Assembly: GCF_011045215.1 (NCBI RefSeq)
Contig: NZ_CP049201.1
Strand: one strand, 5' to 3'
DNA length: 64,000 nucleotides
Source: Escherichia coli
Lineage (GTDB): Bacteria > Pseudomonadota > Gammaproteobacteria > Enterobacterales > Enterobacteriaceae
Both the position numbers and the translations under genes were made by a program. Positions within the stretch are counted from its first letter, which is position 1, and each line of letters starts with the position of its first letter. This document shows positions 38,912 through 64,000 of this stretch, piece by piece. The notes beneath the pieces were generated by a model. The model saw only the letters and a program-made list of their open reading frames with translations, ran no database searches and was not told the DNA's origin.

Positions 38912-39838
38912 TGTCGGATGCGTCGCGTGGCGCATCCGACAGTTGTGCGCAGATGCCTGATGCGACGCTGGCGCGTCTTATCATGCCTACAGGCCTGAAC
39001 CGTAGGTCGGATAAGGCGCTCGCACCGCATCCGACACCGTGCTCAGTGCCTGATGCGACGCAGGCGCGTCTTATCATACCTACAGGCCTGAACCGTAGGT
39101 CGGATAAGGCGCTCGCGGCGCATCCGACACCATGCGCAGATGCCTGATGCGACGCTGATGCGTCTTATCATGCCTACAGGCCTGAACCGTAGGTCGGATA
39201 AGGCGCTCGCGCCGCATCCGACACCATGCGCAGATGCCTGATGCGACGCTGATGCGTCTTATCATGCCTACAGGCCTGAACCGTAGGTCGGATAAGGCGC
39301 TCGCGCCGCATCCGACACCATGCGCCGATGCCTGATGCGACGCAGGCGCGTCTTATCATGCCTACAGGCCTGAACCGTAGGTCGGATAAGGCGCTCGCAC
39401 CGCATCCGACACCGTGCTCAGTGCCTGATGCGACGCTGATGCGTCTTATCATGCCTACAGGCCTGAACCGTAGGTCGGATAAGGCGCTCGCGCCGCATCC
39501 GACACCATGCGCAGATGCCTGATGCGACGCTGATGCGTCTTATCATGCCTACAGGCCTGAACCGTAGGTCGGATAAGGCGCTCGCGCCGCATCCGACACC
39601 ATGCGCCGATGCCTGATGCGACGCTGGCGCGTCTTATCATGCCTACAGGCCTGAACCGTAGGTCGGATAAGGCGCTCGCGCCGCATCCGACACCGTGCGC
39701 AGATGCCTGATACGACGCAGGCGCGTCTTATCATGCCTACAGGCCTGAACCGTAGGTCGGATAAGGCGCTCGCGCCGCATCCGACACCATGCGCCGATGC
39801 CTGATGCGACGCTTACCGCGTCTTATCATGCCTACCCA
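38912..39838. repeat. Large REP/BIME array: about 10 tandem units of 93-94 bp between prpE and codB
   Basis: Unit gcctgatgcgacgctg[g/a][c/t]gcgtcttatcatgcctacaggcctgaaccgtaggtcggataaggcgctcgcgccgcatccgacacc[a/g]tgcgcagat recurs starting at 38955, 39048, 39142, 39236, 39330, 39423, 39517, 39611, 39705, 39799; each unit holds two opposed REP palindromes. Confidence 0.9.
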
Positions 39839-39905
39839 CTGTTTTTACACCGATAATTTTCCCCCCACCTTTTTGCACTCATTCATATAAAAAATATATT
39901 TCCCC

Positions 39906-39921
39906 ACGAAAACGATTGCTT
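39906..39921. promoter_or_regulatory. Candidate PurR box in the codB promoter region
   Basis: ACGAAAACGATTGCTT resembles the PurR operator core (AAAACG/TTTGC halves) about 70 bp upstream of the codB GTG start. Low-moderate confidence. Confidence 0.35.
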
Positions 39922-39987
39922 TTTATCTTCAGATGAATAGAATGCGGCGGATTTTTTGGGTTTCAAACAGCAAAAAGGGGGAATTTC

Positions 39988-41247
39988 GTGTCGCAAGATA
40001 ACAACTTTAGCCAGGGGCCAGTCCCGCAGTCGGCGCGGAAAGGGGTATTGGCATTGACGTTCGTCATGCTGGGATTAACCTTCTTTTCCGCCAGTATGTG
40101 GACCGGCGGCACTCTCGGAACCGGTCTTAGCTATCATGATTTCTTCCTCGCAGTTCTCATCGGCAACCTTCTCCTCGGTATTTACACTTCATTTCTCGGT
40201 TACATTGGCGCAAAAACCGGCCTGACCACTCATCTTCTTGCTCGCTTCTCGTTTGGTGTTAAAGGCTCATGGCTGCCTTCACTGCTGCTGGGCGGCACCC
40301 AGGTTGGCTGGTTTGGCGTCGGTGTGGCGATGTTTGCTATTCCGGTGGGCAAGGCAACCGGGCTGGATATTAATTTGCTGATTGCCGTTTCCGGTTTACT
40401 GATGACCGTCACCGTCTTCTTTGGCATTTCGGCGCTGACAGTTCTTTCGGTGATTGCGGTTCCGGCGATCGCCTGTCTTGGCGGTTATTCCGTGTGGCTG
40501 GCCGTTAACGGCATGGGCGGCCTGGACGCCTTAAAAGCGGTCGTTCCCGCACAACCATTAGATTTCAATGTCGCGCTGGCGCTGGTTGTGGGGTCATTTA
40601 TCAGTGCGGGTACGCTCACCGCCGACTTTGTCCGGTTTGGTCGCAATGCCAAACTGGCGGTGCTGGTGGCGATGGTGGCCTTTTTCCTCGGCAACTCGTT
40701 GATGTTTATTTTCGGTGCAGCGGGCGCTGCGGCACTGGGGATGGCGGATATCTCTGATGTGATGATTGCTCAGGGCCTGCTGTTGCCTGCGATTGTGGTG
40801 CTGGGGCTAAATATCTGGACCACCAACGATAACGCGCTCTATGCGTCGGGTTTAGGTTTCGCCAACATTACCGGGATGTCGAGCAAAACCCTTTCGGTAA
40901 TCAACGGTATTATCGGTACGGTCTGCGCATTATGGCTGTATAACAATTTTGTCGGCTGGTTGACCTTCCTTTCGGCAGCTATTCCTCCGGTGGGTGGCGT
41001 GATCATTGCCGACTATCTGATGAACCGTCGCCGCTATGAGCACTTTGCGACCACGCGTATGATGAGTATCAATTGGGTGGCGATTCTGGCGGTCGCCTTG
41101 GGGATTGCTGCAGGCCACTGGTTACCGGGAATTGTTCCGGTCAACGCGGTATTAGGTGGCGCGCTGAGCTATCTGATCCTTAACCCGATTTTGAATCGTA
41201 AAACGACAGCAGCAATGACGCATGTGGAGGCTAACAGTGTCGAATAA
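39988..41247 (+). CDS. codB: Cytosine permease (NCS1 family)
   Basis: 419-aa ORF from GTG ([19 protein letters not shown]), AGGGGGAA RBS upstream; 12-TM-like hydrophobic profile. Confidence 0.95.
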
Positions 41248-42520
41248 CGCTTTACAAACAATTATTAACGCCCGGTTACCAGGCGAAGAGGGGCTGTGGC
41301 AGATTCATCTGCAGGACGGAAAAATCAGCGCCATTGATGCGCAATCCGGCGTGATGCCCATAACTGAAAACAGCCTGGATGCCGAACAAGGTTTAGTTAT
41401 ACCGCCGTTTGTGGAGCCACATATTCACCTGGACACCACGCAAACCGCCGGACAACCGAACTGGAATCAGTCCGGCACGCTGTTTGAAGGCATTGAACGC
41501 TGGGCCGAGCGCAAAGCGTTATTAACCCATGACGATGTGAAACAACGCGCATGGCAAACGCTGAAATGGCAGATTGCCAACGGCATTCAGCATGTGCGTA
41601 CCCATGTCGATGTTTCGGATGCAACGCTAACTGCGCTGAAAGCAATGCTGGAAGTGAAGCAGGAAGTCGCGCCGTGGATTGATCTGCAAATCGTCGCCTT
41701 CCCTCAGGAAGGGATTTTGTCGTATCCCAACGGTGAAGCGTTGCTGGAAGAGGCGTTACGCTTAGGGGCAGATGTAGTGGGGGCGATTCCGCATTTTGAA
41801 TTTACCCGTGAATACGGCGTGGAGTCGCTGCATAAAACCTTCGCCCTGGCGCAAAAATACGACCGTCTCATCGACGTTCACTGTGATGAGATCGATGACG
41901 AGCAGTCGCGCTTTGTCGAAACCGTTGCTGCCCTGGCGCACCATGAAGGCATGGGCGCGCGAGTCACCGCCAGCCACACCACGGCAATGCACTCCTATAA
42001 CGGGGCGTATACCTCACGCCTGTTCCGCTTGCTGAAAATGTCCGGTATTAACTTTGTCGCCAATCCGCTGGTCAATATTCATCTGCAAGGACGTTTCGAT
42101 ACGTATCCAAAACGTCGCGGCATCACGCGCGTTAAAGAGATGCTGGAGTCCGGCATTAACGTCTGCTTTGGTCACGATGATGTCTTCGATCCGTGGTATC
42201 CGCTGGGAACGGCGAATATGCTGCAAGTGCTGCATATGGGGCTGCATGTGTGTCAGTTGATGGGTTACGGGCAGATTAACGATGGTCTGAATTTGATCAC
42301 CTACCACAGCGCCAGAACGTTGAATTTGCAGGATTACGGCATTGCCACCGGAAACAGCGCCAACCTGATTATCCTGCCGGCTGAAAATGGATTTGATGCG
42401 CTGCGCCGTCAGGTTCCGGTACGTTATTCGGTACGTGGCGGCAAGGTGATTGCCAGCACACAACCGGCACAAACCACCGTATATCTGGAGCAGCCGGAAG
42501 CCATCGATTACAAACGGTGA
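41237..42520 (+). CDS. codA: Cytosine deaminase (amidohydrolase superfamily)
   Basis: ORF 41222..42520; start at GTG 41237 ([19 protein letters not shown]) with GGAGG 6 nt upstream, 427 aa; overlaps the codB stop by 11 nt; metal-binding HIHLD. Confidence 0.95.
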
Positions 42521-56101: not shown

Positions 56102-56968
56102 ATGAGTTATCAGCCACAAACCGAAGCCGCCACCAGCCGTTTTCTGAATGTAGAAGAAGCGGGTAAAACGCTGCGCATCCATTTTAATGACTGCGGACAA
56201 GGCGACGAAACCGTTGTCCTGCTGCATGGTTCCGGCCCGGGTGCTACTGGCTGGGCGAACTTCAGCCGCAATATCGATCCGCTGGTAGAGGCGGGCTATC
56301 GGGTGATCCTGCTGGATTGTCCGGGTTGGGGCAAGAGCGATTCGATCGTTAATAGTGGTTCGCGATCGGATCTTAATGCACGAATCCTGAAAAGCGTGGT
56401 GGATCAACTGGAAATCGCCAAAATCCACCTGCTGGGCAACTCGATGGGTGGTCATAGTTCTGTGGCGTTCACCCTTAACTGGCCGGAGCGCGTCGGCAAA
56501 CTGGTGCTGATGGGCGGCGGTACGGGCGGCATGAGTTTGTTTACGCCGATGCCAACCGAAGGTATTAAGCGACTGAATCAGCTTTATCGTCAGCCGACTA
56601 TCGAAAACCTGAAGCTGATGATGGATATCTTCGTTTTTGATACCAGCGATTTGACCGACGCCCTGTTTGAAGCGCGCCTGAATAATATGCTGTCGCGCCG
56701 CGATCACCTGGAAAATTTCGTTAAGAGCCTGGAAACTAATCCGAAACAGTTCCCGGATTTTGGCCCACGTCTGGCGGAAATCAAAGCGCAAACCCTGATT
56801 GTCTGGGGGCGCAACGACCGCTTTGTGCCGATGGATGCGGGTCTGCGTCTGCTGTCCGGCATTGCCGGTTCTGAACTGCATATCTTCCGCGACTGTGGTC
56901 ACTGGGCGCAGTGGGAACATGCCGACGCTTTCAATCAACTGGTGCTGAATTTCCTCGCACGTGCTTAA
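56102..56968 (+). CDS. mhpC: 2-hydroxy-6-ketonona-2,4-dienedioate hydrolase (alpha/beta hydrolase)
   Basis: ORF 56039..56968; start at ATG 56102 ([15 protein letters not shown]), 288 aa; GNSMGG nucleophile elbow. ATG 56087 or 56099 are alternative starts. Confidence 0.9.

Positions 56969-63125: not shown

Positions 63126-64000
<875 letters not shown>

Follow-up and report, generated by a model that had tools for sequence, protein, structure and literature searches.

The PurR operator upstream of codBA in an Escherichia coli genome matches the K-12 site

For E. coli K-12, PurR control of the codBA operon, which encodes cytosine permease and cytosine deaminase, has previously been described and curated. 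Cho et al. 2011 (PMC3159470, Table 1) give a 16-bp PurR motif for the codB-codA ChIP-chip region of K-12 MG1655, at coordinates 354064-354079. The ChIP experiments used tagged PurR, and the codB-codA peak was present only with adenine (enrichment of 1.41, compared with 2.08 for the core pur operons), with no peak in its absence. Adenine repressed codB 34.5-fold, the expression changes were dependent on purR deletion, and codB and codA were classed as directly repressed by PurR (PMC3159470). Many PurR motifs were described as sitting in the interval from the -35 to the -10 element, which fits control at initiation (Cho et al., PMC3159470). The codBA site was graded as strong evidence by RegulonDB curators (PMC3548332), and PMC9853098 refers to earlier genetics by Andersen et al. 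1989 on the control of codA by purR. A 2008 Tractor_DB study described the link between PurR and codBA as conserved in Salmonella only (PMC2329645).

The core pur operators (purF, purT, purHD, purL, purMN and others) follow the consensus ACGCAAACGTTTGCGT / ACGNAAACGTTTGCNT. Like these operators, the codBA box is a 16-bp palindrome with a central CG and GCAA/TTGC arms, lying over core promoter elements so that initiation is repressed. Unlike them, it shows a lower ChIP enrichment, and the operon that it controls salvages a pyrimidine instead of directing purine synthesis. The codBA box also resembles those of xanP, yieG, tsx and yjcD (the ryjA/yjcD region), which are uptake genes or regions that also appear with PurR boxes in that ChIP-chip list (PMC3159470). 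It differs from these in that the codBA promoter is in addition activated by NAC (PMC9379551, PMC9853098) and subject to UTP-sensitive reiterative transcription. The initially transcribed region of codBA is 5'-ATTTTTTG according to PMC7039003, which cites Qi and Turnbough 1995.

The window analyzed here, meaning the whole stretch of 64,000 nucleotides, contains the prpE-codBA-cynR region of E. coli, with prpE upstream and cynR downstream according to the annotation of complete E. coli genomes. The features of the codBA promoter and operon are collected in Table 1. The codA reading frame begins within that of codB, with 11 nt in common. The PurR box has its central CG at 39913-39914, which divides it into the halves ACGAAAAC and GATTGCTT. 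As read directly from the letters, AAAC and GTTT-type arms flank the central CpG, and the outer arms are GCAA and TTGC. The importance of the central CG is known from PurR-operator structures.

Table 1. Features of the codBA promoter region and operon in the window, with promoter positions counted from G39950 as +1.
Feature	Position in window	Strand	Position relative to G39950	Basis or remark
NAC-like ATA-N9-TAT element ATATAAAAAATATAT, probable NAC activator site	39885-39899	+	-65 to -51	
PurR operator (PUR box) ACGAAAACGATTGCTT	39906-39921	+	about -44 to -29, with the start position taken from the literature	Imperfect 16-bp palindrome, leave-one-out PWM, published motif identity, conservation
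Probable -35 hexamer TTGCTT	39916-39921	+	-34 to -29	Within the 3' half of the PurR box
Spacer, 16 bp	39922-39937	+		Between TTGCTT and TAGAAT
Probable -10 hexamer TAGAAT	39938-39943	+	-12 to -7	Conserved as TAnnAT in the enterobacterial alignment
Transcription start region GATTTTTTG	39950-39958	+	+1 to +9	UTP-sensitive start switching, reiterative transcription
codB, cytosine permease, GTG start	39988-41247	+		ORF (419 codons) and RefSeq annotation in matching E. coli genomes
codA, cytosine/isoguanine deaminase	41237-42520	+		RefSeq annotation transferred from a matching genomic locus (L001) and from K-12; ORF end

The original prediction had placed a candidate PurR box just past a BIME array and about 70 bp before the GTG codon of codB, and both placements hold. 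The distance to the GTG is 66 bp from the end of the box and 74.5 bp from its center, and the box lies 70 bp beyond the end of the array at 39835. In this REP/BIME tandem array (38931-39835), a 94-bp unit is repeated 9.6 times with a 94% match. The spacer between prpE and codB measures 1081 bp in this strain versus 329 bp in K-12 MG1655, and we therefore regard the array as a strain-variable expansion.

Comparison with the K-12 codBA operator showed the same 16-mer, the same 82 bp from the start of the site to the codB GTG, and the same core promoter, so that the box in the window is the published site in another E. coli strain. In the alignment with K-12 MG1655, the promoter matched between the last REP and the start codon except for one T/C difference, and showed no difference from the PurR box through to the GTG. 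Because the window promoter is, apart from this base, identical to that of K-12, the K-12 literature applies directly. Both main claims of the original prediction, namely that the box is a PurR operator and that codBA is purine-repressible, are supported: the first by the identical published motif, the strong RegulonDB grade, a high PWM score and the retention of the box in orthologous promoters, and the second by the adenine-dependent ChIP peak and the adenine repression of codB (PMC3159470). Apart from the much longer REP/BIME array, the one difference from K-12 is a lone T-to-C at about 39861, within the T/C tract that precedes the promoter (TTTTCCCCCC versus TTTTTCCCCC); the base also differs from that in strain XJ34.

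The PurR box deviates from the perfect palindrome ACGCAAACGTTTGCGT at positions 4, 10 and 15. A search of the window for this palindrome with up to 3 mismatches was non-discriminating, as it returned 1 match against 0.49 expected, and at least one match was found in 40 of 100 shuffled controls. Because the consensus search alone was not significant, a PWM was adopted, trained on the 27 PurR motifs that remain in the table of Cho et al. 2011 (PMC3159470) once the codB site is excluded. In this leave-one-out scan, a check of the kind proposed with the original prediction, the box scored 22.1 of a possible 25.4 bits. No other position on either strand of the 64 kb scored higher, and the box outscored about two-thirds of the training sites, as a genuine site would. 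The corresponding chance probability is 1.9e-8 per position, or 0.0024 expected matches over the two strands of the window. The confirmed codBA site shows that a genuine operator can be recognized from raw sequence. The runner-up among independent matches in the window reached 14.2 bits. This was AGGACAACGGTTTCGT at 56205-56220 on the minus strand, inside the mhpC coding sequence; together with further PurR-like matches at 63739 and 57035, none above 14.2 bits and all absent from the published ChIP list, it was set aside as probably due to chance.

We mapped the promoter elements relative to the known start region. The initially transcribed sequence ATTTTTTG maps to window positions 39951-39958, with TAGAAT located 6-7 nt upstream of it. 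A G7/A8 start switch at codBA was reportedly described by Qi and Turnbough in 1995, and we take the G at 39950 to be the additional codBA start of that work. With these assignments, the PurR box lies in the promoter, over the inferred -35 element, and in the sequence comparisons it appears with conserved spacing to the probable -10 element. TTGCTT shares only 3 of the 6 bases of TTGACA and would be a weak -35 element, which is why a generic sigma-70 scan did not call the TTGCTT/TAGAAT pair. The only pair that the sigma-70 scan did call, a weak TTTGCA/TATATT at 39872-39900, was disregarded because it is incompatible with the published start region.

Between the NAC-like sequence ATATAAAAAATATAT and the PurR box downstream of it there are 6 bp. 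From its ATA-N9-TAT consensus and its position near -59, it is probably the NAC site of codBA reportedly described by Muse et al. 2003. This ATA-N9-TAT element was not conserved in other genera in an alignment of 13 enterobacterial promoters. Purine, pyrimidine and nitrogen signals represent three documented inputs within about 75 bp of the codBA promoter.

Based on the sequence, the PWM score, the conservation described below, and the occupancy and repression published for K-12, the 16-bp box is almost certainly the operator through which PurR controls the codBA promoter of E. coli, most likely by exclusion of RNA polymerase, in line with the textbook view. When purines are plentiful, a PurR dimer with its corepressor (hypoxanthine or guanine) would bind the imperfect palindrome. 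Because the box contains the -35 hexamer, bound PurR is predicted to block RNA polymerase from the codBA promoter, with steric occlusion of the -35 element as the most likely mode given the position of the box. Transcription of the genes for cytosine permease and cytosine deaminase would then decrease, and with fewer codBA transcripts, cytosine uptake and deamination would be lowered while purines are abundant. The same short promoter is under two further known controls, activation by NAC from the probable site just upstream under nitrogen limitation, and a response to UTP through start-site switching with reiterative transcription at GATTTTTTG. The PurR site explains why cytosine uptake and deamination are turned off in E. 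coli at high purine levels; otherwise it matters mainly for correct annotation.

To investigate the occurrence of the box in other bacteria, the loci of CodB relatives were scanned, with one genome per species. The set comprised 80 loci, 76 of them with enough upstream DNA. A candidate PurR box of at least 16 bits was retained within 350 bp upstream of the orthologous codB in 43 of the 76 loci from other species. The rest of these codB loci, 441 kb in total, contained 2 matches of at least 16 bits, corresponding to a roughly 360-fold enrichment upstream of codB. The box begins 74-83 nt upstream of the codB start codon in Escherichia, Hafnia, Proteus, Citrobacter, Salmonella arizonae, Kluyvera, Superficieibacter, Pragia, Limnobaculum, Budvicia and Edwardsiella. 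The distance is 71-76 nt in Haemophilus, Aggregatibacter and Pasteurella, and 54 nt in Gallibacterium. Many Vibrio loci either lacked a strong box or had one elsewhere, at about -120 or -330, and some other loci had no strong box or had it at a different distance. Judged from these sequences, the PurR-codB link with a fixed spacing from box to start is conserved across Enterobacterales and Pasteurellaceae, which disagrees with the Salmonella-only report (PMC2329645). This cross-species footprint is a small addition to the K-12 work, in that it refines the breadth of the conservation of the link.

In Hafnia paralvei ATCC 29927 (L004), the PurR box is identical to that of E. coli and the core promoter is near-identical. 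CodB from this strain is 94% identical to E. coli CodB, compared with 81-84% for the Citrobacter and Salmonella proteins, which hints at horizontal transfer of the locus.

In most of the Enterobacterales and Pasteurellaceae loci (L003-L081), the distance from the start of the box to a (G/A)TTTTT tract was 44-45 nt, which suggests a conserved module for combined control by purines and UTP. We consider the chances about even that the PurR box and the UTP-sensitive start region GATTTTTT form one fixed module ancestral to Enterobacterales and Pasteurellaceae, that joint purine and pyrimidine control is widely conserved, and that PurR might override the induction by nitrogen limitation in E. coli. 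The last element is proposed because the box lies so close to the NAC-like site. If the module is real, the control of cytosine salvage by purines and pyrimidines together would extend far beyond what the Salmonella-only report indicated.

Alignment of the 13 enterobacterial promoters showed four conserved islands, namely the box, the -10 element, a GCGGCG discriminator and GATTTTTTGG. The majority fraction was 0.89 in the box, 0.79 in the -10 element, 0.85 in the discriminator and 0.96 in the start region with its T-tract, the most conserved block of the promoter. Outside the islands, the fractions were 0.57 upstream of the box and 0.61 in the spacer, which are not conserved. The spacing between the box and the -10 element was constant in all 13.

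The conserved block at the box could in principle be the -35 or upstream promoter element of codBA, its likeness to a PurR box being incidental and the purine repression indirect. Such a reading draws on the probable -35 element in the 3' half of the box, at a fixed 16 bp from the -10 element. We consider it very unlikely, as conservation is equally strong in the 3' half and in the 5' half ACGAAAAC, located upstream of the -35 element, and as the cross-species variants, for example ACGAAAACGTTTGCAT and ACGAAAACGTTTGCGT, move towards the PurR palindrome. The occupancy of codBA by PurR is, moreover, adenine-dependent (PMC3159470). It is similarly improbable that the main binder is another regulator of the LacI family with a similar half-site rather than PurR. 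A central CG and similar arms are common to operators of this family, but the ChIP was carried out with tagged PurR and the expression changes required purR (PMC3159470), and a PWM built solely from PurR motifs places the box in the upper half of genuine sites. Least probable of all is a functionless chance match, for which the non-significant palindrome mismatch count and its shuffled controls might be cited, and which is effectively refuted by the PWM expectation per window, by the retention of the box in position across two bacterial orders, and by the published binding in vivo (PMC3159470). No observation speaks directly against the assignment of the box as the PurR operator of codBA.

Of 5426 complete E. 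coli genomes, 5222 contain the 90 bp surrounding the PurR site. In two diverged strains that were examined, all of the promoter substitutions lay upstream of the PurR box, and the box itself was unchanged. The diverged strains OV24 and FDAARGOS_1283 carry substitutions in and around the NAC-like element at 39885-39899, with an unchanged PurR box. E. coli MS20673, a CSF isolate (NZ_CP082067; L083, 1726-2500), has an IS1 inserted between the PurR box with its -35 hexamer and the -10 element of codB. The insertion is flanked by a 9-bp target duplication, TATCTTCAG, and splits the operator from the core promoter.
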